64,000 bases of DNA from Candidatus Woesebacteria bacterium (GTDB lineage Bacteria; Patescibacteriota; Microgenomatia; UBA8517), in NCBI GenBank assembly GCA_013426185.1, contig CP058602.1, forward strand, positions 399,123 to 463,122, given 5' to 3'. Below are positions 2,518 through 25,771 of this stretch, in pieces. The position numbers and the translations under genes were made by a program. The notes beneath the pieces were generated by a model. It was not told where the DNA came from. It saw nothing but the letters and a program-made list of their open reading frames with translations, and searched no databases. Within the stretch, counting starts at the first letter, position 1; every line of letters begins with the position of its first letter.

Positions 2518-2548
2518 AGATTATATAGCAAAAAGAAGATTAACAAAA

Positions 2549-2587: not shown

Positions 2588-2611
2588 GAAGTGCTAGCCA
2601 AATAGGAAACC

Positions 2612-3205: not shown

Positions 3206-3254
3206 CTTTTCTATAAGATTCTAGGCTCAGAAAAAACAAAAAGAGGCTTGCAGA

Positions 3255-4639: not shown

Positions 4640-4662
4640 GGTATGAACAAGAACTTAAAATA

Positions 4663-7747: not shown

Positions 7748-7933
7748 TTTTTCACTTTTTAATACTTTCCCTAAAAAAACCAGCTCTTTCCTTAAATCAG
7801 GCTGGTTTCTAAGTATCTAAAATAATCTAAACGTTAACTGACTATATCTTATCACCAAACCCCTAATTCATCAAATTCCGGTTTAGTGTAAAGACATATG
7901 CGACACTTTTAGGTAAGATAACAGATTATGTAG

Positions 7934-8501: not shown

Positions 8502-11225
8502 CCATTTCTTCCCCGACCCGCACCAACAGGGATCGTTTCGGCCAATCTTTTTGGAGGAAGCCTGAACCCTTTTGACCAAAGGCTTGTCTCCACTTACCGA
8601 CTCTTTTACTTCGGGAGATTGGCTTAAGCCCATCATATCGGATGTATCAACATTAGTTTGAGCCATATCAAGCGGAATCTCCTGAGGCCTTTCCATAACA
8701 CCAATCCTAAATATTCTTCGCGTAAGTTCGTCATCAATTTTTTCGAGAAGACTTTCAAAAGAATTATAAGCTTCATTTTTAAACTCAACCAAAGGATCCT
8801 TCTGTGCGTAAGCCTGAAGCCTTACATTTTCTCTTAAGCTATCCAAATAATCTATATGTTCAATCCAAAAATGATCAATCGCAGAAAGATAAGCAAACTT
8901 GTCAATTTGGTTTGAGATATCAGTGCCATACTGCTTTACCCGCGCATCATAAACATCTTTTACAACTTTCAACAAAAACCCTCTAATCTCATTTTCTCCC
9001 TCTAATTCGCTCAATTTTTTCTTAAAAGCGTCTTTTGAGGCATCATCAAAAGGAACTATTTCCAAAAATAAAGCCAAAAGATATTCATAATCAAAACTAC
9101 CTTCCCGTTGTGAAGACAAAATAATTCTGTCAATTTTCTTCTCAAGCTTTTCAAAAACAACATCATGAAGGTCATCTGCCATCAAAACTTTCCTTCTTAA
9201 CTTATAAACAACCTCCCTTTGCTGATTAGCAACATCATCGTATTCAACTACACTCTTCCTCAAATCAAAATTGAAGCCCTCAACCTTAATTTGCGCCTGC
9301 TCAATCGCCCGCGAGACAAGCCTATTTTCTATTGGCTGGTCTTCAGGAATAGCAAGCCTATCCATCAAAGATTTGATTTGATCTCCACCAAAAATACGCA
9401 TCAAGTCATCTTCAAGAGAAAGATAAAAACGAGAGGAACCAGGGTCACCCTGCCTGCCTGAACGACCACGAAGTTGATTATCAATTCTTCTTGATTCATG
9501 CCGCTCGGTGCCAATCACATAAAGCCCCCCAAGGCTAACAACTTTGTCATGATCCTCTTGCCATTTTTTGACTTCTTTTGATTTTGCCCATTTTTCCTTG
9601 GAAACCCCAGCCGGACAATCCGGAAAAGAACCTCCTAAGACAATATCAACTCCTCGCCCAGCCATATTGGTTGCAACAGTTACTGCATGGAGTTTACCAG
9701 CATCAGCAATAATTGATGCTTCTTTTTCGTGGTTTTTGGCGTTTAGGACATTGTGGGGAATTTTCTTTCTCTTTAAGTACTGGCTTATTATTTCGTTCTT
9801 TTCAATAGAAGTCGTACCCACCAAAACTGGCTGACCCTTTTTGTATCTTTCCTCAATATCAGAAACTATGGCTCCATATTTGGCACGAAGAGTTTTGTAA
9901 ATCAAATCAGGGTGATCAACCCTAATCATTGGCTTATGAGTTGGAATAACAACCACATCAAGTTTATAAATCTTTTTGAATTCCTCAGCTTCAGTGGCTG
10001 CAGTTCCTGTCATACCTGAAAGAACCTCATACATCCTGAAGTAATTCTGAAAAGAAATAGTCGCCAAAGTCTTTGACTCCTGCTGAATAGGAACGCCTTC
10101 TTTGGCCTCAACTGCCTGATGCAAACCATCACTCCAACGCCTGCCAAACATCAGTCTTCCCGTAAACTCATCAACAATAATCACCTGATTATCTTTGACA
10201 ATATAATCTCTATCTTTCAAAAAAAGCGTCTTGGCACGAAGCGCGTTTTCAATATGATGTATGGCGTCAAAATCCTTTTCATAAAGGTTGGGAACACCCA
10301 AAAGCTTTTCTACCCTTGCAATACCATGGTCAGTTAAAGTCGCTGTTTTTGCCTTTTCGTCAATTTTAAAATCAGTATCAGGGTTTAATTTTTCAACAAG
10401 CTGAGCAAATTGATAATATTTCTGGGTTGGTTCACTATCAGGAGCAGAAATTATAAGCGGCGTTCGCGCCTCATCAATTAAAACTGAGTCAACCTCATCA
10501 ACCACGGCAAAATAATGCTCACCCAAGCCTTCCTTTCCACCAGTCTTTTTGCCAAGAGGTGATGATTGAACAATCTCATCCAAACTTTGGGCCATATTGT
10601 CGCGAAGATAATCAAAACCAAACTCATTATTGGTGCCATAGGTAATATCACACTCATAAGCCTCGCGACGAGAGGATGGCCTTAAATGTTCAAGCCTCTC
10701 ATCCCCATGGCTTTTGTCAGAATAATTAGGATCAAAGACAAAAGATTTTGACTCCTGAATAATAATACCAACCGAAAGCCCCAAGAGATTAAATGTCGGT
10801 CCATTCCAACCAGCATCGCGTCTTGCTAGATAGTCATTGACCGTCACAAGATGAGCGCCTCTTTCTTTTAAGGCACGAAGATACAAAGCAGGAACAGCAG
10901 ATAAAGTTTTTCCCTCGCCTGTTTTCTGCTCTGCCACTTTGCCTTCAAACAAGGCAACTGCCGCCATCAACTGGACATCAAAATGCCTAAGGCCAATAGC
11001 GCGAAAGGAAGCCTCACGCACTAAAGCAAAGGCTTCAGGCAAGATGGATTCCAAAGACTCGCCTTTATTAATTCTTTCTTTAAACTCCTGTGTCTTTTTG
11101 GCAAAATCCGAGTCTTTTAGCTTTTTGACCTTTGAATCGTAAGAGTTGATTTTCTCAACTACTTTGGCAAGGCGATCAACTTCTTTAGCATTTAAATCAA
11201 GCAATTTGGAAATAAATTTAAACAT
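8466..11225 (-). CDS. secA: preprotein translocase ATPase SecA
   Basis: DEAD-like motor domains throughout. C-terminal zinc finger CWCGSGKKWKKCH. Likely start is MFKFISKLL, 8 codons inside the listed ORF. Confidence 0.95.
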   Translation of the reverse strand: MFKFISKLLDLNAKEVDRLAKVVEKINSYDSKVKKLKDSDFAKKTQEFKERINKGESLESILPEAFALVREASFRAIGLRHFDVQLMAAVALFEGKVAEQKTGEGKTLSAVPALYLRALKERGAHLVTVNDYLARRDAGWNGPTFNLLGLSVGIIIQESKSFVFDPNYSDKSHGDERLEHLRPSSRREAYECDITYGTNNEFGFDYLRDNMAQSLDEIVQSSPLGKKTGGKEGLGEHYFAVVDEVDSVLIDEARTPLIISAPDSEPTQKYYQFAQLVEKLNPDTDFKIDEKAKTATLTDHGIARVEKLLGVPNLYEKDFDAIHHIENALRAKTLFLKDRDYIVKDNQVIIVDEFTGRLMFGRRWSDGLHQAVEAKEGVPIQQESKTLATISFQNYFRMYEVLSGMTGTAATEAEEFKKIYKLDVVVIPTHKPMIRVDHPDLIYKTLRAKYGAIVSDIEERYKKGQPVLVGTTSIEKNEIISQYLKRKKIPHNVLNAKNHEKEASIIADAGKLHAVTVATNMAGRGVDIVLGGSFPDCPAGVSKEKWAKSKEVKKWQEDHDKVVSLGGLYVIGTERHESRRIDNQLRGRSGRQGDPGSSRFYLSLEDDLMRIFGGDQIKSLMDRLAIPEDQPIENRLVSRAIEQAQIKVEGFNFDLRKSVVEYDDVANQQREVVYKLRRKVLMADDLHDVVFEKLEKKIDRIILSSQREGSFDYEYLLALFLEIVPFDDASKDAFKKKLSELEGENEIRGFLLKVVKDVYDARVKQYGTDISNQIDKFAYLSAIDHFWIEHIDYLDSLRENVRLQAYAQKDPLVEFKNEAYNSFESLLEKIDDELTRRIFRIGVMERPQEIPLDMAQTNVDTSDMMGLSQSPEVKESVSGDKPLVKRVQASSKKIGRNDPCWCGSGKKWKKCHYPDPGPN

Positions 11226-11468
11226 ACTCAGTGCAAAAAATATTAACAAGGTAAGTATAGCAAAGAAAACTGCTAAGTGATAATGAAGACTTAAGAAATC
11301 AAAAACAGTAGGCTAAAGGCCGTAAAAGAAAAAAGCAACCAAAGAACGCTTCTTCCTTTTTAAAAAGACGCTTTAGCCTACTGTAATTTTAAGCCAAACA
11401 AACTTAAAAGAGGTGAGGCAAACCCCTAAAAATAAGGATAAAAAAGGGTCTGCCCCACCTAATAAAAC

Positions 11469-12800
11469 TTAATACTGAGGATCAGGGTTCTCCTCACAAT
11501 ACTTCAAAATACGCCTGTGCGTCTCCTCTGGGGGAAGAAGTCTCCCTGCGCTGTCAAAGAAACAGTCTTTTTTGACTTTTTCCTGTTCCTTCCGAAGCGC
11601 CTCTGGGATTAACCTCTCGGAACGTCGGGTATAGGTTTCCAAAGGTATAACACTTATCTTTGGAAAAGGAATCTGAGGACTAGGGACGAGGCGAATTCGG
11701 GAAGTGGTATTATGATCCGCTGTCATCAGAGCAAACTGAGCTAGTGGATCCGCAGACTTGTTGCCATCTAAAACCGATACTATGTTAGTATTAGATGTAC
11801 CAAGCTTAGGATAAAAACCACCTCTTCCAACCATAGCCGCAACCCTACTTATCGCCTCAGTAGGAATTCCACCCGTAACCATTCCACCACCCGGTTCTGC
11901 TACAGCTCTAAAAGCATCAACTGCACGCGACGCGCTCTCATAAAAAGTAATACAATGGTAGTGCGCCCCAAGAACAAGGCTACGGTGGTACCCCCAAAGA
12001 AAGACCTGCCACTGAAATTCCTGCGGGACCCCCTTGGGAGCAGACCAAACTTCAACTAAGCCATGGGGGGTATTTTGGAGAAGATCTAAATAATCACTTA
12101 GGTCCTCACCACGCTCTCCCACAAAGACCAACACTGCACAAATCCTCGAGTCCTGAGTCAATTTTAAAACTTCCTTCCAGGCCTCAAGAATAAGAGTAGT
12201 TTTACCCAAGCCGCCCTCACCAAGAATATAAGTTGTTTGCCCATAACCTTGAACAGCTCCCAAAAGATAAATCATTCTCCAAGCTATACTTCCGCCTTTA
12301 TCCAGAGGGATTATCTCTTGAGGATATTCAGGCAACACTTCAAAGTCAAAAAATGGCCTATGAGAGAAAGGCTTTTGGCCATTTACGGAAGTGATACAGA
12401 CCAGATCACCCTCAACCCCCACCTCCACTTTATCCCCCATCCTCAAATTGTAATACTTCACTATAGGTGGAGGGACTTCCAAACCCCAGCTTTTCAAATC
12501 ATCCGAATTGATATCACCCTTTTTCAAAAGGTCGGCATAATCTGCAGGGTTTAGGTAGTGCGGGTAAGGGTTCGGAAGAGTCACACTCTCTCCATCAAAA
12601 GCCCAAAAACACGTGGGGCCGTCTGGCTTGACCAGGACTGCCTGAGAACTCTGGCCTATTATCTGATCAGATGGAAAAGAAGTTAAAACCCTTCGCAGGT
12701 CTTTTTCTAAAACCAAAACGGTCCTGGGAACAGGTTTATCCCCATAAAGGAGTAGCTCTTTAGGGTCAACCTCCTCCTGAATAACATAAGCAGAAATCAT
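11469..12800 (-). CDS. P-loop NTPase (GxGGxGKTT Walker A; VirB11/STAND-like, family unresolved)
   Basis: 443 aa, ILGEGGLGKTTL and a Walker-B-like VLVFVGERGED. GC-rich codon usage. RBS aaggagg upstream. Confidence 0.55.
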   Translation of the reverse strand: MISAYVIQEEVDPKELLLYGDKPVPRTVLVLEKDLRRVLTSFPSDQIIGQSSQAVLVKPDGPTCFWAFDGESVTLPNPYPHYLNPADYADLLKKGDINSDDLKSWGLEVPPPIVKYYNLRMGDKVEVGVEGDLVCITSVNGQKPFSHRPFFDFEVLPEYPQEIIPLDKGGSIAWRMIYLLGAVQGYGQTTYILGEGGLGKTTLILEAWKEVLKLTQDSRICAVLVFVGERGEDLSDYLDLLQNTPHGLVEVWSAPKGVPQEFQWQVFLWGYHRSLVLGAHYHCITFYESASRAVDAFRAVAEPGGGMVTGGIPTEAISRVAAMVGRGGFYPKLGTSNTNIVSVLDGNKSADPLAQFALMTADHNTTSRIRLVPSPQIPFPKISVIPLETYTRRSERLIPEALRKEQEKVKKDCFFDSAGRLLPPEETHRRILKYCEENPDPQY

Positions 12801-12945
12801 AGTTCCTCCTTTTTCTATTACTATTTTACCCTCGAGGACTTGGCGCTATTTTTCTTTTTGGATACGCCACGCCATAGGCTTAAAGCAAAACTTAAAGACC
12901 ATGGCATGGCGTACCCAATCGTTTGTTTGGCTTTCAAAGTGCCCT

Positions 12946-13075
12946 TCTTTAATTAAAGCTATAGAAGGCTTATCTTCCTGCTTTAAGCAAAGAAGAATTA
13001 AATTTTTAAATAAATTCTCTAGTTTTAACCAACTAACAAAAGCTAGTTGGCTAAAAAAGAGACACAGCAAGAAAG
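12946..13075. repeat. island repeat copy 1 (module 2 only), preceded by a distinct 12-bp-stem hairpin at 12862-12915
   Basis: Shares gtgcccttcttta...ccaactaacaaaagctagttggctaaaaaagagacacagcaagaaag with copies 2 and 3. Lies upstream of CDS 11469-12800. Confidence 0.8.
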
Positions 13076-13304
13076 TTAATTAAAAAGGGCGTTTACCAAA
13101 AGAAAAGGAGGATGGGAATCAAAGATCCCCATCCTCTGGGCCAAACTCAAAAATTAGAGATCCAGTAATTAATGAGACTAAGTAATATACAGAGAAAAGA
13201 AAGCACCAAAAAACTTAAAACATAAAACAAGCAAGATCGCCACACCATTGTCTTTTCAAACCTGTTGGGATCTGGCAATTCAAATCTTACATATCTTCCC
13301 ATAG

Positions 13305-13799
13305 TTACCTCAACTCCATAAACTGGCACAAAAACAAATAGTAATACCGGCGAGAAGGAAACTCTTTCCTAACTGCTGGGCCAACAATAGCAAGACTCCA
13401 ATCAAGGTAAAAAGGTATTCCAGTGGATGAAACAGCAATACTATCAACGCCAAATTCAACCAGAGCCTGTTTCGGCCAAAGGGAAGCCATCGCTTCTAAA
13501 AATCTATCCACCCAAAGAGCCAGATTACAACCCTCGTCTAAAAACTCTTCGAGAGTAATGTAGCCATTATTAGGATAGACAATAGCTCTTTCACCCTCAG
13601 GACTAGCCTCAAACCCAAGGCCTAACTTTCTAGCCTGAAAGTTAAAAGCCTCTAGAACACGATCCCTCTGATCAGGGTTGCCAAAAATCTGGACTCTAGC
13701 AAATTCTGGGGAATATCTAAATCCCCAAACAGGAAAACTCCCATCCCAGGATCCAGGAAGAAAACAATTAAACGCAGGAGCATAAATATCTGTGTCCAC
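13305..13799 (-). CDS. hypothetical protein (island)
   Basis: 164 aa, GC-rich ORF, no recognisable motif. Confidence 0.45.
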   Translation of the reverse strand: MDTDIYAPAFNCFLPGSWDGSFPVWGFRYSPEFARVQIFGNPDQRDRVLEAFNFQARKLGLGFEASPEGERAIVYPNNGYITLEEFLDEGCNLALWVDRFLEAMASLWPKQALVEFGVDSIAVSSTGIPFYLDWSLAIVGPAVRKEFPSRRYYYLFLCQFMELR

Positions 13800-13814
13800 T
13801 TTTCCTCCCTCTTT

Positions 13815-15053
13815 TTACTCCTGATCGCTCCCTACATAGATAACAGAACCAGAAGGGCCTTGGCTTTCATCAACCTCATTAGAAGATGAAGAAGTTGAAG
13901 ACGAACTAAGAACCCTGCCAGTTAACAACGAAAAGAAAGGGCCCTGCTGCCCTTGCTGCTGCTGTTCCGCCTGCAACCGTCTGGACTCATCCCTCGCTCT
14001 GAAAAGAATCTCTTTCAGACGAGAAACATCATCCATATAAGGAAGAAAATCTGTGCCGGATTTATTAATGTAGATGATTAGCAAAGCCCCAGTGCCATAC
14101 TTCCTGTACCAGAGTGAAAGGAAAAATTCCTTAAACCACCCGGTTTTGAACCTGTTTTTTACCTCCGGATCTAAATCGACTGTAACATCCTCCGGATCTG
14201 CAGCCGTCAACACATCCTGGATACCAGAGTTGACAGTCAAAGAGGTAACAGGAAGCCCTGAATGGCCACCTGAAAAAAACAGATGCTTCAAAAAAGCCCG
14301 TGTAGTCTCAGGAAGTAAAAGTATTGCTAAGACTAAAATAATGCTCCCAAAGATCCACAAGTTAAAAATACCAACAATCAAAAGAAAAACCATAAAGATC
14401 AATGGCTTGATAACAGGCATCAAGCCAAGGAGGTTCTTCCTGATCCTTAACAAGACTGAATTGTGTGTAAAGACTGTAAAAATTGTCGTCCTCCGATCCC
14501 ACTCCAGAAGGGATAACTTCACAACAAGGACCAACACTAAAAGACAAACAAGAATTATATTTGCCCCAATATTTAGAGGCAAAGGTAAAAAAAACCATAA
14601 AGCGAAAGAGATAAACCAACCCAAGATGGTAACAAGTGGCAAAAATTGCCAGTTCATCACAAAATCCACTGTCGCCACTTTTGAAGGCAGCTGACGGTGG
14701 AATAAAATCTCACGATCTCGAGCGCGATAAACTAACTTGTCTTCTTTGGGAAGCCAGAAAAAACTAAATAGCCGGAGAAGAAAACCAGGTTTCTCCTCCG
14801 ACCCGACCGCAATTTTGGAAAAGATGGAATACAACAATATTACAGCCGCTAAAGTAGCAAGGCTGTAAAAAATGTAATATCCCGCTCTTCCAAAATCGAT
14901 CTGAAATTCAGGAAGACCAAAACTTACAAGGTCTATCCCAAAAAGGCTTAGCATAAAAAGGTAACCCAAAGCGGCTACCAAAACAAAAACCAAGGCCAAT
15001 ATAGCCCCTAAAAAATTCTTTCCTTCCATAGATCTCTCCCTTCCGAAAAACAA
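13815..15053 (-). CDS. polytopic membrane protein (island), C-terminal Q/S-rich tail
   Basis: 412 aa, at least 6 hydrophobic helices, RBS gggagag, low-complexity QAEQQQQGQQG...SSSTSSSS tail. Confidence 0.5.
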   Translation of the reverse strand: MFFGRERSMEGKNFLGAILALVFVLVAALGYLFMLSLFGIDLVSFGLPEFQIDFGRAGYYIFYSLATLAAVILLYSIFSKIAVGSEEKPGFLLRLFSFFWLPKEDKLVYRARDREILFHRQLPSKVATVDFVMNWQFLPLVTILGWFISFALWFFLPLPLNIGANIILVCLLVLVLVVKLSLLEWDRRTTIFTVFTHNSVLLRIRKNLLGLMPVIKPLIFMVFLLIVGIFNLWIFGSIILVLAILLLPETTRAFLKHLFFSGGHSGLPVTSLTVNSGIQDVLTAADPEDVTVDLDPEVKNRFKTGWFKEFFLSLWYRKYGTGALLIIYINKSGTDFLPYMDDVSRLKEILFRARDESRRLQAEQQQQGQQGPFFSLLTGRVLSSSSTSSSSNEVDESQGPSGSVIYVGSDQE

Positions 15054-15061
15054 ATTTTTAT

Positions 15062-15320
15062 GGCTCCTCTTGTTTTTGGGTGAGCCTCGATTAATCTCCT
15101 AAACTCAAATTAGAGAATTAAGAAACTAATCAAGGCTCACCCAGATTGGTGTGGGATAATCTTCTTTCTTGCTGTGTTGTTAAAGTGCCCTTCTTTACTT
15201 AAAGAATAGAAGGCTTATCTTCCTGCTTTAAGTAAAGAAGAATTAAATTTTTAAATAAATTCTCTAGTTTTAACCAACTAACAAAAGCTAGTTGGCTAAA
15301 AAAGAGACACAGCAAGAAAG
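15062..15320. repeat. island repeat copy 2 (modules 1+2), immediately upstream of CDS 13815-15053
   Basis: Near-identical to 18647-18905. Contains a 9-bp stem gggtgagcc/ggctcaccc, a 15-bp perfect stem cttctttacttaaag/ctttaagtaaagaag, and the hairpin ccaacta..tagttgg. Flanked by cttgctgtgt/acacagcaag inverted repeats. Confidence 0.85.
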
Positions 15321-15377
15321 AAAAAAGAAGTGAAAGGACCGCCAAAAAGAAGGCTTTGAAACTTGAAAGCAGTCCTT

Positions 15378-16667
15378 TCACTTACAAAACAAAATAGAAT
15401 GGTCTTGGATATTCGAGGAGGCCTGCCTTAGCCAAACATGCGCATGGGCAGCCGTTGAATTCCCAATATTACCCACACTGCCTATTTCCCGTCCGGCTGT
15501 GACTTGGCTCCCCACGGCAAGATTTTCAGGAAAATGCAAATGCATTATCCCTAGTTCTGTACCGTTTTCCAACTTGAGGGTTAGAATAGAATTGCCCAAG
15601 CCATCATAAAACATAGCTGTGACAACCCCATTCATTGGAGTAAAAAGCGGAGTCCCATCAGAAGCTATATAATCATAGCCTTTGATGAGTCCACAGCTCC
15701 AACTTGTACCCTCACAGCCGGTGTGGTAACCTCGAGGACCAATGGTATACATGCCACCAATAAGGGGCTTGCAGTCACCATCGCCTCCAGGATTATCAAC
15801 CGGCAAACCTTCACCTGGGCTGTCATCATAGGCATAAGCAACTTTCGGAAAGATTCCAAGAAGTTGCAAAGCCTCCAAGACAATTTTTTTCCAGAACAAA
15901 GGCTTAAGAACTACACGGTTGGCCCCGGGGGTTGTTGCTATCGGCAATTTATCTCCAGTTCTACTCAGAAGCTCTGAGTAGAGCCGGTAGACAAATTCAC
16001 CCTGCGGAGGATAACGATTCCACCCCATAAACTCGTTAATAAAATTCTCCTTCCCCTTAGAATAGGCGTCATCCAGTCCTATCAGCTTGTAATAAACACA
16101 AGCCGCATAGGCTGACGCCCGCCTATCAGTTCGATCAGGGATAGGGAACACTTCCAAAAGTTCAGGGTAAAGCTCCGGGATTTGAACGGTCCAGAGCCTT
16201 TCCCATGTGGAATCTATAAACTGCCAAGTACCAATAGCAGTTGCCCTGTTTTTAGTCCTATAATTGGTATAGGAACTAGATTCACTAAAAGCAACCGCTA
16301 TGTTAAGGCGCGGATCACACCATGGGAAATGCATATAAGCCTCCCAGACCGGATCCCACACCTCAGGAGGAGCATAAAACTCTACCTCATTTCCATTCCA
16401 ATAGGTTATGGTGAATGGTTGGATAACTGTCTCTTTACCATCCACCACAACTGGAACGGAACGGATATTAAAATCCTGGACCCCCAGGAGTCCGGAAACG
16501 ACTTCTTCATAATGCTGGGGGTCCGTGTCATGATAGTAACCCAAGGATAAAACCATGGTTACTATCAAGACAAATAGGAAAAAAGGGGTATTAGCCAAAA
16601 GAAGAAGGAAGAGTTTAAGAGTCAGTTTCTTCATCCTCTTCCCCTTTCGGCTTAATACGTTCGACAA
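15378..16667 (-). CDS. bifunctional cell-wall hydrolase: lytic transglycosylase (SLT) + M23 (LytM) peptidase, VirB1/CwlT/PrgK-like
   Basis: 429 aa with signal peptide. SLT motif AFSESSSYTNY...AIGTWQFIDSTW. C-terminal M23 motifs GIMHLHF and AAHAHV. Confidence 0.75.
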   Translation of the reverse strand: MSNVLSRKGKRMKKLTLKLFLLLLANTPFFLFVLIVTMVLSLGYYHDTDPQHYEEVVSGLLGVQDFNIRSVPVVVDGKETVIQPFTITYWNGNEVEFYAPPEVWDPVWEAYMHFPWCDPRLNIAVAFSESSSYTNYRTKNRATAIGTWQFIDSTWERLWTVQIPELYPELLEVFPIPDRTDRRASAYAACVYYKLIGLDDAYSKGKENFINEFMGWNRYPPQGEFVYRLYSELLSRTGDKLPIATTPGANRVVLKPLFWKKIVLEALQLLGIFPKVAYAYDDSPGEGLPVDNPGGDGDCKPLIGGMYTIGPRGYHTGCEGTSWSCGLIKGYDYIASDGTPLFTPMNGVVTAMFYDGLGNSILTLKLENGTELGIMHLHFPENLAVGSQVTAGREIGSVGNIGNSTAAHAHVWLRQASSNIQDHSILFCK

Positions 16668-18615
16668 AACTCAGAAGGGGGTAGTGGAGATGCTGATTCA
16701 GGGTGACTACTAACTCACCTGTTTGCGGGTTTATCACCTTAGCCAGATGACCTGTGCCCTCACCCATCTTAAACAAAAAATTAAAGGATTGGACCACATC
16801 TCCAATAACTTTCTTAAAATCATCGACATTCTGGATAGCTATCCAGATACGTATGCCAGCGTTTGCCCCTTGAGTTACAAACCAGTTAATAGTTCTTGCA
16901 AGATTAACTGCCGTGTCCCAAGGCAAGCTTCCCAAGACAGGGTGATCCTTCTGCTGGTTCGCCAAGTGCGACCAGTTATCTACAACCAACAGTAGATCAC
17001 TCCCAGTCTGAGGATAAAAATCTACCATAGCCCTTTTAAGGCTATTCAGAAAGCTATCCAGATACGCAAGCCAGCCAAGAGTATTGCCGGACTTAAGTTC
17101 AAAAGCGACAGACCTCGTTGGAAAACCGTATTTCTTCCACTCTTCAACAAGCTCTACAACATGGCCTTCTGCGATTTTGCCATATTCAACATGAAGCTGC
17201 AATTGTTTCTCTCTAACCTCTTTGTCAGTCGGATTGTTGTTGCTATCCTCATTTCTGAGAACATCCAATGCATCCGGCAGAATTAACTCAAATACCTTAC
17301 CACCTTCTTCACGTATTCTAGTCGCAGCTCTATCCAAACGGCTTGCAGTCAAATCCACCCACACTACAACTCTTTTTGCCTGAGCCGCTAACACCTGCAT
17401 AATAGTGGATTTACCCGCCTTCTTTGATGGGCCCACAAACACCCACGAAGGGTACAATTTGGGATTTATTAGATAGGGGGTTCTGCCCACATGGCCAAGA
17501 ACCAATGACCCGTTCGGATCTCCAACGGGTATAATGGCCTCGGCCACTTGCTGCAAAATCCCAGAAGGAGAGACACTAGTCCATCCTCTAACAGAGTGTC
17601 TTCCAAAACGGCCAGGCAAATTCGGACCGCCAGGGAAAAAGGCGCGCCAGGCAATTTCCAGATCAGCCCCTGTAACAAGCTTCCAGTTACTGATTTCCAG
17701 TAACTTTCCGCTCATTGACAATACTGACTGAGAGTCACCCTTGCGCACTTTTAACCGCAGAAGTGGCGTAACAAAAAGAAAGGGTGTTCCTCTCTGAAAT
17801 TCGAGGCGGAGGAAAATATCAACAGGCAGCTTTAGCAACTCGGCAAAATTCTTCGAGCTGAGCTGCCCGCCATCCCAGAAATAAAACGACCATTGATTGT
17901 CTATGACAACCTGATCGTCTACGAACACCACCGACCGCGGCGATGCATAGTCTAGGTGACACGCATCACCCGTCATAGGGTCGTGGGAAATATAGTTAAG
18001 CTTCGGAGGAAGACCATAAACTAATGAATGGAGCCCTGAACCTGCATTACTACTGTTCAGGACTTTCCCTCCAAAAACACCACTAAAACGTGGTGCGAAG
18101 TTGGGAGGAACAAAAAGCCAAAGAGTTCGAGCAATGTGGATAGAACTATCATCGTTCCCCACTGCCCATCTTTTTATAGCATCCAAGAAGCTCCTCCGAT
18201 AGTCGTTTGCCCCCTCAGTCAGACGAGACAGGTTTCCAAAAAACCGGCCAAACATCAGGGGGTGGCAAGTGAGCACCAAGCGCAAGTCATAGCATCCCAT
18301 CTCGGGAAGCTTGAATAGCGCCGGCACCTCAACTACCTTGCCATTACCGGCGTCAAATGGGTAAGGAGAAAGGGTACTCCCGTCAGTAAAAACCAATACA
18401 GAGTTGGCACCGCTCTTCCCAACAAAGGTAGCTTGTATCTTGTCACCGTCAACCACTTTTGACGGTAATACCCTAAGACCACCAAATAACCAAGCGGTAC
18501 TGGTGTCCTCGTTGTGCCCATTTACCCCGACAACAGGGTCTCTAGGAGGTGGTAAAAGAGGCTGATGTCTCCCATTAAGACCCAAACGATGGAGTAAAAG
18601 CTGAAGACTATTCAT
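16615..18615 (-). CDS. P-loop ATPase, VirB4/TrbE-like (putative T4SS ATPase)
   Basis: 666 aa, mid-protein Walker A GPSKKAGKST, Walker-B-like LLLVVDNWSH (compare VirB4 DEAW), no TM helices. Family assignment is tentative. Confidence 0.5.
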   Translation of the reverse strand: MNSLQLLLHRLGLNGRHQPLLPPPRDPVVGVNGHNEDTSTAWLFGGLRVLPSKVVDGDKIQATFVGKSGANSVLVFTDGSTLSPYPFDAGNGKVVEVPALFKLPEMGCYDLRLVLTCHPLMFGRFFGNLSRLTEGANDYRRSFLDAIKRWAVGNDDSSIHIARTLWLFVPPNFAPRFSGVFGGKVLNSSNAGSGLHSLVYGLPPKLNYISHDPMTGDACHLDYASPRSVVFVDDQVVIDNQWSFYFWDGGQLSSKNFAELLKLPVDIFLRLEFQRGTPFLFVTPLLRLKVRKGDSQSVLSMSGKLLEISNWKLVTGADLEIAWRAFFPGGPNLPGRFGRHSVRGWTSVSPSGILQQVAEAIIPVGDPNGSLVLGHVGRTPYLINPKLYPSWVFVGPSKKAGKSTIMQVLAAQAKRVVVWVDLTASRLDRAATRIREEGGKVFELILPDALDVLRNEDSNNNPTDKEVREKQLQLHVEYGKIAEGHVVELVEEWKKYGFPTRSVAFELKSGNTLGWLAYLDSFLNSLKRAMVDFYPQTGSDLLLVVDNWSHLANQQKDHPVLGSLPWDTAVNLARTINWFVTQGANAGIRIWIAIQNVDDFKKVIGDVVQSFNFLFKMGEGTGHLAKVINPQTGELVVTLNQHLHYPLLSFVERIKPKGEEDEETDS

Positions 18616-18646
18616 AAAACTCTCCTTTCCGAAAAAAAATTTTACT

Positions 18647-18905
18647 GGCTCCTCTTGTTTTTGGGTGAGCCTCGATTAATCTCCTAAACTCAAATCTAGA
18701 GAATTAAGAAACTAATCAAGGCTCACCCAGATTGGTGTGGGATAATCTTCTTTCTTGCTGTGTTGTTAAAGTGCCCTTCTTTACTTAAAGAATAGAAGGC
18801 TTATCTTCCTGCTTTAAGTAAAGAAGAATTAAATTTTTAGATAAATTCTCCAGTTTTAACCAACTAACAAAAGCTAGTTGGCTAAAAAAGAGACACAGCA
18901 AGAAA
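18647..18905. repeat. island repeat copy 3 (modules 1+2), immediately upstream of the VirB4-like ATPase gene
   Basis: Differs from copy 2 by only a few substitutions. Confidence 0.85.
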
Positions 18906-19044
18906 TTTTTGGATAAAAGAAAGTTAATCGGCAATTAACCAAAGCTTTTTTGGAATGCTTCAAATTAACTTTCTCAAACAAAAAAAGAGAGGATGGTAGT
19001 TCCTTGATTTGTTCCTTGAAAGAAAAGGAACTACCATCCCTCAA

Positions 19045-19371
19045 TTATCTCTTAATTACTCTTATTACCTTACTGTAAGGTTTATACGACCTTACTTTTT
19101 TCCGGTAAATCACAAACCTAACTAGCCTTGTGGCTAGAAAGACTAGTAATATACTTACCGAAAGGGGTAACAGGCAAGCAAGAGACAGACGGAAAAATAA
19201 AACTACTACTGGTTTCCATGCTACCGACAAAATGCAGAAAAAGGAAACCAGTAGCATCAAAAACGGGGCAATATACCTAGTGAAGTACCTCTTCACTGGA
19301 TAGTGCTCCGTTGGGTCAAACAAAAAATATAACCAGAACCTAACTTTTTCCCTAAGATTCCTCGTATTCAT
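19045..19371 (-). CDS. small membrane protein (island)
   Basis: 108 aa, 2-3 hydrophobic helices. Confidence 0.4.
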   Translation of the reverse strand: MNTRNLREKVRFWLYFLFDPTEHYPVKRYFTRYIAPFLMLLVSFFCILSVAWKPVVVLFFRLSLACLLPLSVSILLVFLATRLVRFVIYRKKVRSYKPYSKVIRVIKR

Positions 19372-19380
19372 CTTAACCTC

Positions 19381-20769
19381 CTAGGGAATTACAATATCGT
19401 CTGAATTAGAAAGCTGGGAAATTTTTTCCCCAAGACTGGTAAGGTTGGGGTCTCCCTTAGCCTTACTGGCAGCTTGGAGAATACCACCAAACACCTTCTC
19501 CTTGGGATAGGCCTGTTGCAGGTCTTGGCCTGCCTCTTTAGCAGCTTTCCTATCAATCAATCCCTCTGCTACCTGTGTAGTAGCGTTGACAACAGGGATA
19601 ACGATAGGTGCCGCCTCAGGGGCTGCCACAGCTGTCACTAAATTTACAGCCGTAGCCACCTTACCCACAGCCGCCTTTGCCTTACTAGCCTCCTCTTGCG
19701 GCTTGGATGGAGAAGGCGTTGGAGAAGACTGGTTAGGGCCATTCTCTCCCGGGCTTGGGGGGATGACAACATCTCCGGAAGGAACATCTGTTGGCCCACT
19801 GGAAGTGAAACCACTATCCCCAGCCGGTCCAGAAGGGACATCTCGTTCAGAGCCAGAAGAGGAAGAGCCAGCTGTTAGCAAAGGAACAAATTCTTCGGGA
19901 ACTACAACTTCTCCCCCTCCGCTTCTACTAGCTCGCCTACTCCTCTCCCACGGTTCTAAAACAGAATTCCAGTCTACCGGAGGTCTTTCCTTGCTCACAC
20001 CCTCTATAGCCGTTTCTTCTTCATCCCTAAATTCGGGAGTGAGGATTGCGGCCAGGAAAGGTACGGTGACATAACAAAAGAACATTGTCAAAATAACTGT
20101 CCCCGTATAAAACACATTTACTAGGACAGTTACTGGACCAAAAGCCCAATCAGGATAATTGCTTCCAAAGAATTGAACGATGGCATTGAAAAGGGCAAGA
20201 AAAATTGCCCATCCAAAAACCTCGCCAATTATGAAAGCAATACCCTTAATTGATCGCCCCAAAATGGACCAAGATAGAGCAACGATAGCTGCAATCAACA
20301 TAACGACCTGCCACCTTGAGACAATCAAAGGGATCAGAAAAGTCAACGTAACCCCCCATGCCGCACTTGCCAAATTTCCCAAATCAGGAGACAACTCCCA
20401 CCGCATGGCGGTAAGGATTTTCTCCAGCCTAAGTTCGGCGGGTAAGACTATTTCACCCAATCTGGTAGTGAAGTCTATAAATAACAACACTACCATCGGG
20501 ATAGAGAACATCAATATCATGCTAGTTACAAGCCCAGCACTAACAACTTTCCCTCTACCCACACTACGTGCAAGGGATATAAGCGCTGAGATAAAACCAG
20601 CAAGGATTAAAAAAATCAAGACCGGACCAAGATACTGTTGAATTTCCTGCGGCGAGATCTTTAAAAAAAAGCTGTCCCGCCAGTGTCCTTCAACAGCATC
20701 TGGGATTTGACACCCCGTCAGCAGAAGACTGCCGACGGTTAAGAAGAAAAATGCCGGCAGTCTCTTCAT
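19381..20769 (-). CDS. polytopic membrane lipoprotein, VirB6/TrbL-like topology, P/S/G-rich C-terminal tail
   Basis: 462 aa. Lipobox LLLTGC, at least 6 TM helices, C-terminal low-complexity PSPGENGPNQSSPTPSPSKP. Confidence 0.5.
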   Translation of the reverse strand: MKRLPAFFFLTVGSLLLTGCQIPDAVEGHWRDSFFLKISPQEIQQYLGPVLIFLILAGFISALISLARSVGRGKVVSAGLVTSMILMFSIPMVVLLFIDFTTRLGEIVLPAELRLEKILTAMRWELSPDLGNLASAAWGVTLTFLIPLIVSRWQVVMLIAAIVALSWSILGRSIKGIAFIIGEVFGWAIFLALFNAIVQFFGSNYPDWAFGPVTVLVNVFYTGTVILTMFFCYVTVPFLAAILTPEFRDEEETAIEGVSKERPPVDWNSVLEPWERSRRASRSGGGEVVVPEEFVPLLTAGSSSSGSERDVPSGPAGDSGFTSSGPTDVPSGDVVIPPSPGENGPNQSSPTPSPSKPQEEASKAKAAVGKVATAVNLVTAVAAPEAAPIVIPVVNATTQVAEGLIDRKAAKEAGQDLQQAYPKEKVFGGILQAASKAKGDPNLTSLGEKISQLSNSDDIVIP

Positions 20770-20785
20770 TGCCCCTCCTATAGTA

Positions 20786-21070
20786 CTACGGCAACAGGCT
20801 GGGGGCGCTTCCCGAAAAGACAGAGTTGTAGATCCCCTCTGCCCATCTTACGATTTGAGCGTTGGAGAGGTTCATGATATCCCTAAAGCCGACTACCACA
20901 AAGGCCGCTGCAATTAACACGCCAAAAATAATTACCCCGAGGCCCCAAACAGTTTGGTTGCCTCTCCAAACGCCGGAGACCCCGGCTTGAGAAAACAGGG
21001 CCTGGATTAAAAAATACAGGCCAAAAACTATCATCGCGATGCCAGCGACAACTCCTACAAAAGCAATCAT
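20786..21070 (-). CDS. small 2-TM protein (VirB3/VirB2-like size and topology)
   Basis: 94 aa, two hydrophobic helices, RBS aggagag. First gene downstream of repeat copy 4. Confidence 0.45.
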   Translation of the reverse strand: MIAFVGVVAGIAMIVFGLYFLIQALFSQAGVSGVWRGNQTVWGLGVIIFGVLIAAAFVVVGFRDIMNLSNAQIVRWAEGIYNSVFSGSAPSLLP

Positions 21071-21106
21071 TTTACACTCTCCTTCTGAAGATTGGGTTAG
21101 ATTTTA

Positions 21107-21350
21107 GGCTCCTCTTGTTTTTGGGTGAGCCTCGATTAATCTCCTAAACTCAAATTAGAGAATTAAGAAATTAATCAAGGCTCACCCAATTTGGGATTTT
21201 TGTTAAAAAGGTTCTCTTGTCGCCTCAAATTTCTTGCTGTGTTGTTAATGTGCTCTCCTTTACCAAGTTAAAAGAAGGGCAACCCTTCTTTTCTTAAGGC
21301 AAAGAAAATCAAACTTTTGAAGACAAAACTTAATTTGTCTTCAAAACTAA
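21107..21350. repeat. island repeat copy 4 (module 1 plus a divergent hairpin-rich tail)
   Basis: Shares ggctcctcttgtttttgggtgagcc...ggctcaccc...cttgctgtgttgttaa with copies 2 and 3. Tail has stems aagaaggg/cccttctt and tttgaagaca/tgtcttcaaa. Confidence 0.8.
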
Positions 21351-21483
21351 ACACTCAAATAATCTTAAGTGCTTAGTTTTAAATAGGGGTGTAATTGAGA
21401 AAGACCTGCTGGTGGAGACGAGATTAAAAAACGCGCAAAATGCGTTTTAATCTTTGCCAACCACCAGCAGGATGAATTTAAAA

Positions 21484-21564
21484 TGGTGGGGAGAGGATTC
21501 GAACCTCCTTATTCCTGGAGTATAAAATTCCAGCGCTCATCCTTTCTCTTTGAGCTTCCCCACC
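21484..21564 (-). tRNA. tRNA-like gene, non-canonical (81 nt), identity unresolved
   Basis: Perfect 7-bp acceptor stem GGTGGGG/CCCCACC, T-arm GGAGG-TTCGAAT-CCTCT, discriminator A, no encoded CCA. D and anticodon regions are 8 nt longer than canonical. One fold gives anticodon loop UUUUAUA (anticodon UUA). Confidence 0.55.
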
Positions 21565-21575
21565 AATACCAATAA

Positions 21576-22061
21576 TTACCGATAACGACGCCACTTTTTC
21601 TGGCCGGCACGGTCAACAAATTCCTGCCAGACAGCAACCCCTTCTGGAATATCCTCTTCCCGTGTGAAGAAAACAGGGTCGCCACCCATATTAGCCAAGA
21701 AACGACCGGTTGGCCTTTCTTTATTGCTATTACCAGGCGTCGCTTTTTTTTGGCCCTGAGGACGATTGCCTTTTTCTTCCTCTTCCATCTGCGCGAGGAC
21801 TTCTCGCACCACCCACTGTGGGCAGAAATCCTCAAAGTTGGCGAGGAAGTAAAAAACAAGGACATCGTCCAAGGGACCCACAATAAGATCCGGAAATACA
21901 ACCCAAAGAAATCCGGCCACAAAACCAAGCTTAAGCCAACCGGAAACTCTGGGATCTTTTAAGAGCCGAATTTTAAGCTTCAGACCTTTTAAAATCTGAA
22001 GCATAATTCCAGCTCTTTCCGGATCACGGCGAACAGGGGATTTGGGTTGGGGAGTCGCCAT
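21576..22061 (-). CDS. DUF1232 (YkvA-like) membrane protein
   Basis: 161 aa; FPDLIVGPLDDVLVFYF matches the D.IPD.IP..G..DD core of DUF1232. Confidence 0.55.
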   Translation of the reverse strand: MATPQPKSPVRRDPERAGIMLQILKGLKLKIRLLKDPRVSGWLKLGFVAGFLWVVFPDLIVGPLDDVLVFYFLANFEDFCPQWVVREVLAQMEEEEKGNRPQGQKKATPGNSNKERPTGRFLANMGGDPVFFTREEDIPEGVAVWQEFVDRAGQKKWRRYR

Positions 22062-22129
22062 AAAAAGACCTCCTTCTACTCCCCAACCCTTAAATATCCC
22101 TCACGGCTGGGGAGCATCAGAAAAGGAAC

Positions 22130-22588
22130 TCAAGCCGTAGTAGCCGGCTCGGCAGCCTTTTTCGCATTGCCATTTTCGTTGTCTTGGTACTCCTTGTAAC
22201 GTTTTTGCCAAGGCCTATCTTTGATAGCTTTGATGAACTCATCCTTAACTTGCCGAAGCTGCTCGTCAGAACAACCGAGGTCTTTCATTACCAACGTCAG
22301 CAGCCAAGGGGTATTATGCCGAGTTACATCAAAACGTCGGCCATTTGGTAAACAGATAAACAATCTACCACCTTCGAAAGAGAAGTGTGGCACAGAAGGA
22401 CGACTCAAGCGAGAAACAATTTCTGCAGCCACTCTCGCAGGGCCCGCAAAGGAAACATTGTTTGGACCCGTCAGAATCACCTTCTGTTCACCCATACCAT
22501 CCCAATCGCCTGGAGTAAAAAATCTTGGGAAGACCTCCGGGTTCTCAGCCTTTATTTCAAATGAGCCAATTCTCAACGTGCCAGACAT
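22130..22588 (-). CDS. hypothetical protein
   Basis: 152 aa, GC-rich, no motif recognised. Confidence 0.45.
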   Translation of the reverse strand: MSGTLRIGSFEIKAENPEVFPRFFTPGDWDGMGEQKVILTGPNNVSFAGPARVAAEIVSRLSRPSVPHFSFEGGRLFICLPNGRRFDVTRHNTPWLLTLVMKDLGCSDEQLRQVKDEFIKAIKDRPWQKRYKEYQDNENGNAKKAAEPATTA

Positions 22589-22933
22589 ATCTCACTCTCC
22601 TTAAACGAATGAAAAGATTTTTACTGACTTACAGAACTTACAGAAATTAAAAACCCGGTTTCCTCAATATGACCTCCTTCCTTAATTGAAAGAAAAAACT
22701 ATGTGCCCTGCTTTTTCTTTTTAGCTTGGGGCCGGAATACTTTTAAACTTAATAAACAATAAACACAAAAACAAAAATAATAAAAATGGAAAACAATTTT
22801 AAGAAGACTGTTGAAGAAATAACGCTTAAAAGCATTCCTGCCCCAAGCTTTTTGGCCCAAACTACCCCTGTCTTAATTCCAATTACACCCCTATGTTAAG
22901 GTGCAATTCCTTTTTCAAGGAATAAGAGCAGGA

Positions 22934-22958
22934 ACAAAAAAAGCTGCCACAGGCAGCC
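22934..22958 (-). terminator. intrinsic terminator downstream of the VKOR-like gene
   Basis: Hairpin gctgccacaggcagc followed on the minus strand by a T7 run. Confidence 0.55.
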
Positions 22959-23093
22959 TCTCAACCACTTTTCAACTTAAAAAGATCTAACCACTTATAG
23001 GATTATGGCCTATTATAAAAAAACTTTTATTTATTGTCAAGCTTTTCAAAACAAAAGAGGCAAAACCCACTAACAAAATTACTATAAGAGATT

Positions 23094-23564: not shown

Positions 23565-24180
23565 CTATCGGACATTGGCCGTCAGACATCAGATGTCGGA
23601 CATCAGCTATCGGAATTTGGTCGGAACTGGCCGAAGTTGGTCTCCGCCTGTGGCGGAGTTGGTCAAAAGTTAGTCCTCACTTACAGTGAGGTTGGTCAAA
23701 GTTAGTCGGAGTTAGTAGAAAGTAGAACGTAGTAAATAGAAAGCAAAATTAATAAATAGTTAAAAGTGCAAAGTTAAAAGTTGTGTATTATCCTTTCTAC
23801 TTTCTGCTTACTAATTTCTACTAATTTTAAGTTTTGATTTTTGAGTTTTAAGTTTTAATTTAATTTGTAATTTGGAAAATTGGAAAATTGTAATTTGTTT
23901 AGGATTTAGAATTTAGAATTTGAAATTTGTATATTGTAATTTGTTTGGATCTTGGAATTTGGAGCTTGTAATTTGGGACTTATTTTTAATTTGTGATTTG
24001 AAATTTGTGATTTGTTTAGAGTTTAGAATTTCGGATTTAGAATTTAATTCAGTAATCTATAATCTAGAATCTATAATCTAACTAGAAAGTTTTAACTTTT
24101 AAGTTTTGAATTATATTTTTGACTTTTGAGTTTTAATTTTTGAGTTAATTATCAATTTGACCAAAAACAATTCTTATCTT
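23565..24180. repeat. AT-rich low-complexity, satellite-like non-coding spacer
   Basis: ~600 bp with no ORF. Many imperfect copies of taatttg, tagaattt, gaaatttg. The 5' part has paired hairpins tccgcctgtggcgga and cctcacttacagtgagg, each followed by gttggtcaaa(a)gttagt. Confidence 0.7.
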
Positions 24181-25690: not shown

Positions 25691-25771
25691 TTGACAAGGA
25701 CGGACCTTGTCAAAAAGCAACTTTTTTCGAGGCCAATTTTCTAGTCGTATGACAAGGACGGACCTTGTCAA
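25691..25771. promoter_or_regulatory. two copies of a perfect 23-bp palindrome TTGACAAGGACGGACCTTGTCAA in a divergent promoter region
   Basis: 25691-25713 and 25749-25771, each followed by aaaagcaaYtt. Third copy at 31316-31338. Confidence 0.6.

Follow-up and report, generated by a model that had tools for sequence, protein, structure and literature searches.

Paralogous hairpin-rich repeats, probable structured leader RNAs, precede the units of a secretion-like gene cluster in Candidatus Woesebacteria

The gene cluster and its proteins

The stretch of DNA analyzed here, referred to as the window, comprises 64,000 nucleotides of a Candidatus Woesebacteria genome (GCA_013426185.1, contig CP058602.1, positions 399,123 to 463,122 of the forward strand). 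The element in question is a hairpin-rich repeat that occurs four times within a cluster of genes resembling those of an envelope-associated secretion apparatus. All genes of the cluster and all repeats lie on the minus strand, and the anatomy of the repeats is described 5' to 3' on this (sense) strand. The cluster encodes a small protein with two transmembrane segments, proteins with several transmembrane segments, an ATPase of the HerA/FtsK superfamily, an M23 peptidoglycan hydrolase and a Rho-family ATPase. The remaining window is housekeeping in character, with genes for aminoacyl-tRNA synthetases, RelA/SpoT, RecJ, SecDF, SecA and TGT. A preliminary description of the sequence had spoken of an island; relatives share the gene order between MgsA/PspC/VKOR and SecA/TGT, however, and the cluster is not a mobile island. 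Neither a relaxase nor an integron integrase was found in it with Pfam and NCBIfam.

The gene that turned out to be most consistently associated with the repeats encodes the Rho-family protein of 443 amino acids (aa):

11469-12800, minus strand, gene for the 443-aa Rho-family ATPase (PDB, NCBIfam, Foldseek)

Its product has an identical counterpart at NCBI, which stems from a metagenome-assembled genome of Candidatus Woesebacteria (GCA_020725745.1). It had been described as an ATPase, a label that stands and can be refined to Rho-like. The protein matched Rho in the PDB with an E-value of 2e-9 (phmmer), and the top 50 Foldseek matches in the PDB were all Rho (E 6e-16, ~350 aligned columns, template-modelling (TM) score 0.5), which is the fold of a Rho-type RecA ATPase. 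The NCBIfam Rho match had an E-value of 9e-9, with 34.6 bits for NF006886 against a cut-off of 315 and 23.9 bits for TIGR00767 against a cut-off of 509. In Pfam only a weak match to ATP-synt_ab was seen, and neither Rho_RNA_bind nor Rho_N was found. The 443-aa protein is a divergent member of the Rho family, far below the curated cut-offs for Rho itself, and it is hypervariable, its alleles being 52% identical between close strains.

For the 666-aa ATPase, the earlier label VirB4-like was not supported: neither a sequence nor a profile match to VirB4 was obtained in Pfam, NCBIfam or the PDB. Its AlphaFold2 model (pLDDT 88) matched HerA, FtsK, TcpA, TrwB and EccC weakly, with E-values of 3e-6 to 3e-3 and TM scores below 0.3, and on the strength of this model the protein can be placed in the HerA/FtsK/TcpA/TrwB/EccC superfamily only. 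Among 1.8 billion representative proteins 42 homologues were present, and a protein word search retrieved three proteins only. The first ~400 residues are nearly invariant and the remainder is more diverged. When compared with related loci (designated here by numbers preceded by L; L001, L012, L033 and L036), the cluster proteins as a whole (11469-22588) evolve much faster than the flanks, and the 152-aa gene cannot be aligned between close strains. Finally, the open reading frame given earlier as 412 aa more likely starts at the ATG at 15029, which yields a membrane protein of 404 aa.

Number and architecture of the repeats

The four co-oriented repeats proposed in the preliminary description were borne out by a direct-repeat search and by reading of the sequence, with the following refined extents:

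12801-13074, minus strand, copy 1
15030-15319, minus strand, copy 2
18616-18905, minus strand, copy 3
21071-21362, minus strand, copy 4

Copies 2 and 3 are 99% identical over ~260 nt in the direct-repeat search, in line with the near-identity noted before. With these two, copy 1 has the upstream half in common and copy 4 the downstream half. Core patterns of 25-26 nt are each present three times, where chance would give 0.00, and do not recur in the 64 kb. A scan of the window with the covariance model R1, built on copies 1-3, likewise returned the four copies only, and most long hairpins of this type fall within 11.3-21.4 kb, few being present elsewhere in the window.

Folding of the minus (sense) strand, as had been suggested, gave the same architecture for all four copies. 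It consists of a domain with two hairpins, A and B, closed by the pairing of two motifs, X and Y, and of a third hairpin, C, downstream of it. Motif X is pyrimidine-rich (UUUCUUGCUGUGUCUCU) and pairs with the purine-rich motif Y (..GCACWUUAACAACACAGCAAGAAA). Enclosed by the X:Y stem are hairpin A, of 15 bp extended by another 4 bp, then a linker rich in A and U, and hairpin B (17+5 bp). On the 3' side of this domain follow a short linker, hairpin C, which is an uninterrupted helix of 19-26 bp (~27 bp in copy 4), and an A-rich tail. In terms of the modules defined earlier, the X:Y stem with hairpins A and B is module 2 and the long hairpin C is module 1. Hairpin C ends 46-59 nt before the start codon, with a strong Shine-Dalgarno sequence (GGAG/GGAGG) between the two, so that each copy indeed stands before a start codon with a good ribosome-binding site. 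The individual parts were located as follows:

12917-13074, minus strand, copy 1 module 2 (X 13058-13074, hairpin A 13023-13056, hairpin B 12944-12995)
12860-12916, minus strand, copy 1 hairpin C, type 1, GGGUACGCCAUG..CGUGGCGUAUCC, 20 bp
15163-15319, minus strand, copy 2 module 2 (X 15303-15319, hairpin A 15268-15301, hairpin B 15190-15240, Y 15165-15188)
15078-15142, minus strand, copy 2 hairpin C, type 3 in this genome
18749-18905, minus strand, copy 3 module 2 (X 18889-18905, hairpin A 18854-18887, AU-rich linker, hairpin B 18776-18826, Y 18751-18774)
18663-18728, minus strand, copy 3 hairpin C, type 3, 26 bp
21228-21362, minus strand, copy 4 module 2' (diverged X', hairpin A 21315-21346, hairpin B 21255-21306, Y 21230-21253; covariance model and fold)
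21123-21187, minus strand, copy 4 hairpin C, type 3, ~27 bp

The presence of module 1 in copies 2, 3 and 4 and of module 2 in copies 1, 2 and 3 agreed with the preliminary description. The reported absences did not hold: copy 1 carries a diverged, type-1 hairpin C at 12860-12916 (GGGUACGCC..GGCGUAUCC), and copy 4 a diverged module 2 at 21228-21362. The latter was recovered at full length by model R1 with 36.7 bits (E 2e-7), although copy 4 had no part in building the model. Module 2 scored 168.8 bits in copy 1, 191.3 bits in copy 2 and 191.9 bits in copy 3; the fold agrees in copies 1 and 2, and copy 3 is supported by fold and covariation. A complete 17-bp X:Y inverted repeat exists only in copies 2 and 3, since copy 1 has GCACUUUGAAAGCC in place of the Y stem and X is degenerate in copy 4.

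Downstream of hairpin C the copies lead directly to their genes. In copy 1 AAAAAGAAAAAUAGCGCC and the Shine-Dalgarno sequence precede the ATG at 12800 (Rho-like ATPase), in copy 2 the Shine-Dalgarno sequence precedes the ATG at 15029 (404-aa membrane protein), in copy 3 an A-rich tail, a GAGCC mimic of the 5' arm (18647-18671) and the Shine-Dalgarno sequence precede the ATG at 18615 (666-aa ATPase), and in copy 4 AAAAACAAGAGGAGCC, a spacer and the Shine-Dalgarno sequence precede the ATG at 21070 (94-aa protein with two transmembrane segments). The mimic covaries with hairpin C in this clade, GAGCC going with type 3 and GCGCC with type 1. It was rejected as a feature of the whole family, since neither copy 4 of L001 nor L036 has it; L032, L035 and L037 have a GUCCC/GGGAC stem enclosing hairpin C instead.

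Small open reading frames within the repeats (74 aa at 12846-13070 and 60 aa at 15199-15381) were treated as spurious. Frames and extents vary between copies, and substitutions track the stems, not codons. At locus L003 the JGI annotation places a 74-aa gene within the repeat.

Compensatory changes and strand asymmetry

The stems were aligned in search of compensatory changes, which were found in hairpin C as well as in module 2. With the three sequence types of hairpin C aligned by anchoring on the stem bases, 99.5% of the cells are paired, and both partners have changed in 10 of 19 pairs. Module 2, aligned by the covariance model, is 97.8% paired in 15 distinct sequences, with 21 of 54 pairs changed on both sides, and 94% paired in nine diverse sequences, with 35 of 54 pairs changed on both sides. 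None of 500 shuffles reached the observed module 2 values in either set, and controls in which the pairing partner was slid gave 38-60% pairing over both sets (38-52% in the diverse set). The covariation is borne by hairpins A and B; X and Y are mainly conserved in sequence.

The minimum free energy of the sense strand was 18-29 kcal/mol better than that of the antisense strand in 18 out of 18 elements. G·U pairs in the stems outnumbered A·C mismatches by 180:11, 89:2 and 48:6, and stem substitutions between orthologues are almost all from Watson-Crick to G·U on the sense strand. The asymmetric wobble together with the better sense fold points to an RNA of the sense strand, not to a double-stranded DNA operator or a symmetric palindrome. 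Compensatory helices on the sense strand of the downstream gene, as expected of a structured cis-regulatory RNA, are therefore what these elements display.

When the window and the related loci were searched against Rfam 15, as had been recommended, no family matched the repeats. At the gathering score only tRNA passed, and at E<=10 the only other matches were to generic hairpins (miRNA precursors) far below cut-off. An aptamer of the riboswitch type was considered unlikely, the helices being long and near-perfect, the AU-rich junction and linker lacking conservation in the diverse set, and hairpin B being missing in one distant relative (L032).

Conservation among close relatives

In the close relative L001/L002, whose flanks are 91-95% identical to the window, all four elements are found at matching places. 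Between the window and L001, leaders and terminators are 96-100% identical, the coding sequences of the cluster are 78-90% identical and one gene (152 aa) has been replaced outright. Three-way comparison of three genomes gave identities of 92-96% for leaders 1-3, 77% for copy 4 and 59-81% for coding sequences. In L033 the leader of copy 1 keeps 95% identity in front of an ATPase whose protein sequence has only 52%. The leaders are thus more conserved than the proteins they precede.

The near-identity of copies 2 and 3 had itself been taken as an argument for function. Copy 2 of the relatives carries a different hairpin C (type 2', AGGUGGGCCUCAAUCA..), and the 260-nt identity can therefore be ascribed to a recent gene conversion from copy 3; by itself it does not speak for function. 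A related observation concerns L033 4585-5015, where the 108-aa gene is joined directly to the 405-aa gene and the genes of the HerA-like ATPase and the M23 peptidase are absent. The junction is exactly that of a copy 3/copy 2 recombination product, or of an assembly collapse. Assemblies from short reads end or jump at the repeats, and several stop within them (contig ends of L003, L004, L005 and L028).

Observations of this kind bear on the idea that the element acts as single-stranded DNA, with a strand-specific fold such as a promoter of the Frpo/ssi type or an attC-like recombination site that is used while the cluster is single-stranded, or else that the repeats are homology anchors for the swapping of variable gene cassettes. 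Strand-specific wobble pairing is compatible with it, the context is secretion- or conjugation-like, and anchors could be recognized in alleles that differ sharply between conserved repeats (the ATPase at 52% identity, the replaced 152-aa gene) and in the loss from L033 of what lies between copies 3 and 2. Housekeeping genes flank the cluster, however, which is syntenic and lies on the chromosome, and no relaxase or integron integrase was detected in it by the searches above. The stems contain no -35/-10 elements, the position beside Shine-Dalgarno sequences is fixed, and the L033 deletion may be an assembly collapse, since assemblies break at the repeats. We therefore regard a role as single-stranded DNA or as homology anchors as very improbable.

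Distribution and distant homologues

Further copies were sought in the window, in metagenomes and in related genomes, and the copies proved to be confined to this cluster and co-oriented before genes. A metagenome-wide scan with a 19-mer of Y gave 15 loci, of which eight were true and all eight lay in this same cluster, the other seven being chance matches without further similarity. Viral contigs scanned with patterns of X and hairpin C contained no true match (six chance 17-mers lacked BLAST similarity). Among the GTDB species-representative genomes, peptides of the 666-aa ATPase found no relative and the alignment of the Rho-like protein found a single locus, L035; these near-empty scans show that the representatives barely cover this clade. 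Model R1 gave full-length matches to distant leaders in four loci of Woesebacteria:

L035, RIFCSPLOWO2_01_FULL_39_61, leader 58 bits, ATPase 32% identical
L037, leader 60 bits
L032, leader 34 bits, hairpin B wholly missing
L036, four co-oriented copies of 27-53 bits

L032 has no direct repeats by sequence, although two copies, a good one and a weak one, are picked up there by the covariance model. In every one of these distant loci a leader copy lies directly upstream of the gene for the Rho-like ATPase. The other copies in L036 precede a 667-aa gene, in the position of the 666-aa ATPase of the window, and two further units. The 667-aa protein gave no BLASTP match to the 666-aa ATPase at E 1e-3, so that their relatedness is suggested by size and position only. 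SecA of L036 is 71% identical to that of the window, and only three cluster proteins still match (Rho-like ATPase, M23 and a 164-aa protein, 27-36%), which anchor the gene order. The distant leaders also have an upstream terminator, an analogue of hairpin C and an A-rich tail before the Shine-Dalgarno sequence, and the window and L036 agree fully in the base of hairpin C of type 1 (GGGUACGCCAUG/CGUGGCGUAUCC). The four-copy layout of L036, the link to the Rho-like gene everywhere and the shared base of hairpin C indicate that the multi-copy arrangement is old and tied to this cluster, above all to the Rho-like gene. Separately, L035 holds a two-copy structured intergenic repeat of its own (7197-7420 and 9341-9520, ~200 nt, 81-92% identical), which is unrelated in sequence to the leaders.

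The preliminary description had named a miniature inverted-repeat transposable element (MITE) with terminal inverted repeats as an alternative, that is, a selfish palindromic repeat homogenized by gene conversion and without function. The terminal inverted repeat of 17 bp that X and Y form in copies 2 and 3, the near-identity of paralogues and the breaking of assemblies at the repeats are what such an element would produce. But no copies were found outside the cluster in the scans of window and metagenomes, all copies are co-oriented with the genes, and they take comparable intergenic positions in the cluster in lineages with 71% SecA identity. All repeat sites are filled in L001, L012 and L033, with no empty sites, and there is no target-site duplication at the X/Y ends. 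In addition, the repeat continues past Y into hairpin C, copy 1 lacks Y, and covariation is strong. With neither dispersal nor target-site duplication, the MITE was rejected; this explanation is largely refuted and can hardly be maintained.

The deep conservation also bears on a reading in which the repeats are modules of RNA processing or stability without a dedicated regulator. RNase III would cut the duplexes of 19-26 bp, or a single-strand endonuclease the AU-rich linker, and a polycistronic transcript would be split into unit mRNAs with protective terminal hairpins, comparable to the early RNase III sites of phage T7. Uninterrupted helices of 15-26 bp, a single-stranded AU-rich linker flanked by two stable hairpins, a tRNA or tRNA-like gene within the cluster as a potential RNase P/Z site, and selection on the sense strand all fit such a role. 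On the other hand X and Y, as well as the upper stem of hairpin A and the base of hairpin C, are conserved in sequence across deep divergence, which suggests sequence-specific recognition and not mere duplex formation, and the constant link to the Rho-like gene is left unexplained. Processing without a dedicated regulator is thus an unlikely reading of the whole, albeit one to be taken seriously.

Terminators, promoters and transcription units

A terminator scan and reading of the sequence placed an intrinsic terminator of the preceding unit upstream of every copy; an extra hairpin and a candidate promoter are listed with them:

13098-13136, minus strand, terminator T1, directly upstream of copy 1
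15321-15383, minus strand, terminator T2, after the M23 peptidase gene, its U-run continuing straight into X of copy 2
18980-19042, minus strand, terminator T3, after the 108-aa gene
18919-18973, minus strand, extra hairpin hp0, between T3 and copy 3
21405-21471, minus strand, upstream of copy 4, small terminator within the inverted repeat CCUGCUGGUGG/CCACCAGCAGG
23012-23040, minus strand, candidate promoter at the cluster head, perfect TTGACA-17-TATAAT

As the U-run of T2 abuts X of copy 2 and leaves no room for a promoter, the leader of copy 2 would be reachable only by read-through. Between leader and start codon no stem followed by a U-run was found; hairpin C is followed by A-runs.

A promoter or operator cassette acting at the level of DNA had been among the possibilities raised initially, with a promoter after each terminator and the palindromes as operators for one transcription factor. 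A strong terminator before each unit does call for promoters unless there is read-through, and the unpaired segments are likewise invariant in the close clade. The best sigma-70-like match in the repeats is TTAACA-16-GATTAT, 9/12, in copies 2 and 3 only. It is missing from copies 1 and 4, which lack the -10 element, and from the orthologous copy 2 of L001 and L012, and no conserved -35/-10 hexamers at fixed positions exist in the diverse leader family, distant copies included. The promoters of other genes of this genome, by contrast, have at least 10/12 matches, with the -10 element ending 2-23 nt from the start codon. The helices covary and tolerate G·U but not A·C, unlike a double-stranded operator. 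The proposal was dropped on these grounds, and a DNA-level cassette now appears improbable.

The perfect match at 23012-23040 would be a candidate for driving a long transcript. It is followed by a non-coding leader of ~420 nt (22589-23010) before the 152-aa gene; the part aligned to L001, 22665-23633, is 92% identical. The ~420-nt leader holds a hairpin with U-run at 22938-22962, which could be an attenuator or a small RNA. Near-start promoters of the sigma-70 type precede several genes, among them those at 28370-29155, 34152-34433, 59624-60094 and 61906-62352, and suggest leaderless mRNAs or mRNAs with very short leaders, in contrast to the cluster, where the leaders are long and structured and the Shine-Dalgarno sequences strong.

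Proposed function of the leaders

Taken together, the restriction to one cluster, conservation above that of the coding sequences, distant homologues, compensatory changes and sense-strand wobble support a functional cis-element (structured 5' leader, riboregulator or processing site) over scattered MITEs, as the preliminary description had favored. We propose, with a probability of about 0.6, that the repeats are paralogous copies of a lineage-specific structured leader or intercistronic RNA, transcribed in sense and heading the units of an envelope-associated, secretion-like cluster for shared cis-regulation. Each unit is laid out as the terminator of the previous unit, X:Y domain, hairpin C, A-rich spacer, strong Shine-Dalgarno sequence and start codon. 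The lack of a family-conserved promoter, the promoter at the cluster head and the abutment of T2 on copy 2 lead us to infer that transcription of the cluster yields a single long transcript, or a small number of them, passing the internal terminators. The leaders may then act in cis as a shared recognition platform at each unit boundary, which would set read-through, processing, stability and translation and thereby co-regulate the units.

Given the invariant association with a leader, the best candidate for a partner in trans would be the cluster's own Rho-family RNA translocase. The Rho-like ATPase might autoregulate through its own leader, presumably the ancestral one, and act on the other units by way of the duplicates. 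The main alternative effector would be RNase III, cleaving the long duplexes.

Several points weigh against shared cis-regulation by such leaders. Transcription of the leaders, its 5' ends and the read-through of terminators are deduced from DNA sequence. The leaders follow terminators, unlike classical attenuators and put/EAR/conAn2. The alignments made with the model are fitted to the structure, which inflates pairing, and that of hairpin C shares this bias through its anchoring; the slid controls and the number of pair types nevertheless argue that the covariation signal is real. The asymmetry of G·T wobble would fit single-stranded DNA of the same strand equally well, and long near-perfect helices as well as invariant loops in the close clade are also expected from concerted evolution of a DNA repeat. 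Finally, the 443-aa ATPase, in which Pfam detected no N-terminal RNA-binding domain of Rho, could be a secretion motor.

A more specific version would make the Rho-family translocase the dedicated partner of the leader RNA, onto which it would load as an entry site specific in both sequence and structure, either as a termination/anti-termination switch or as a motor for RNA export. We consider this a long shot. As a switch it would provide private termination/anti-termination control gating the whole apparatus. As a motor it would feed leader-tagged RNA into the channel, which would amount to RNA export in an epibiotic bacterium belonging to the candidate phyla radiation (CPR), the leader being to RNA what oriT is to DNA; no recognizable coupling ATPase was seen in the cluster besides the HerA/FtsK-like protein.

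To our knowledge, almost nothing is known about gene regulation in the CPR (Patescibacteria). Type-IV-secretion-like clusters have been reported to be essential for the epibiotic lifestyle of cultivated Saccharibacteria (PMC11665869, PMC12102498), and the leader family offers a concrete handle on the co-regulation of a secretion-like cluster in this group. On the practical side, the repeats break or collapse short-read assemblies exactly inside this cluster.

Other elements in and near the cluster

Just upstream of copy 4, at 21484-21564 (minus strand), lies a tRNA-like cloverleaf with a 9-nt anticodon loop, which is called by neither ARAGORN nor Rfam. Its orthologue in L012 (2373-2460) reaches 54.7 bits with the Rfam tRNA model and is read by ARAGORN as an 88-nt tRNA-Phe(aaa), and L032 has a normal tRNA (2389-2462) directly upstream of the leader. 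The arms of a perfect 15-bp inverted repeat, 22880-22894 and 21383-21397 (AUAGGGGUGUAAUUG / CAAUUACACCCCUAU in the sense RNA), lie 1.5 kb apart, and between them are the variable 152-aa gene, the 161-aa gene and the tRNA-like element; 0.11 matches would be expected in the window by chance. The repeat may form a long-range processing stem or mark the boundary of a cassette.

The intergenic region between the Rho-like ATPase and SecA (11250-11468, minus strand) is 96% conserved and contains a terminator and a long two-tier hairpin, with outer arms at 11305-11318 and 11371-11384, a folding z-score of -8.5 and no match to the covariance model. Beyond SecA, window positions ~1984-8490 are an insertion between SecA and TGT relative to L002 and L029, carrying genes for a glycosyltransferase, UbiA and a phosphatase and integrase (rve) fragments at 8122-8490. 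AT-rich degenerate tandem repeats of the TTTGnnATTTG type occupy 23830-24160 in the divergent intergenic region between VKOR and PspC. The palindrome TGACAAGGACGGACCTTGTCA occurs twice at 25691-25771, between the spermidine-synthase-like and MgsA genes, and once at 31317-31338; it is conserved in L001 (3084-3187) and has the appearance of an operator.

Comparison with known systems

Literature searches found no description of such an element in Patescibacteria. The leaders can be put forward as an undescribed family of cis-regulatory leader RNAs, a candidate new RNA class with a candidate protein partner. The following known systems resemble them in part.

Correia/NEMIS, RUP, BOX and REP/BIME are MITE-like intergenic repeats dispersed genome-wide in both orientations. 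Like the leaders they are 100-260 bp long, hairpin-rich, intergenic and bounded by terminal inverted repeats, and they are sometimes co-transcribed. The leaders differ in being confined to one cluster, always in sense, at matching positions in distant lineages, and covarying.

The rho gene of E. coli is autoregulated by Rho-dependent attenuation in its own 5' leader, where the rut sites are unstructured and C-rich. Here, too, a conserved leader lies directly upstream of a gene for a Rho-family ATPase in every lineage examined. Unlike in E. coli, the protein is hypervariable and far below the Rho cut-offs, and the leader is highly structured and also heads units other than rho.

The conjugation operons of monoderm bacteria are long and punctuated by internal terminators, which are overcome by processive antitermination, as with conAn1/conAn2 of pLS20 (PMC8191782, PMC8955417). 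The put RNA of HK022 is an antitermination RNA present once per early operon (PMC9378689), and the type IV secretion systems of Patescibacteria are reportedly derived from monoderm conjugation machinery (PMC12102498). The cluster shares with conAn and put a long operon of secretion or conjugation type with internal terminators and a large, structured RNA acting in cis, with an inverted repeat that is essential in conAn and put. Whereas conAn2 and put stand once per operon, at its start and ahead of the terminators, one copy follows every terminator here. The position typical of put, EAR and conAn2 was therefore not found in the four copies per cluster, nor was an Rfam match. No conAn1-like gene was identified.

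The pyr operon of Bacillus has three PyrR binding loops and the eut locus of Enterococcus four dual-hairpin sites for ANTAR proteins. These sites act as antiterminators that overlap and compete with a downstream terminator. No terminator/antiterminator attenuator of the PyrR, ANTAR, RAT or T-box kind was seen here, the terminators being upstream of the leader, and hairpin C is followed by an A-run and not a U-run. The leaders are also larger (~260 nt, with helices of 15-26 bp) and have no similarity in sequence or in Rfam to those sites. They do share with them the arrangement of several paralogous, co-oriented RNA copies, each before a gene block of one functional cluster, an arrangement which in the PyrR and ANTAR systems allows one factor to coordinate the control of all sites.

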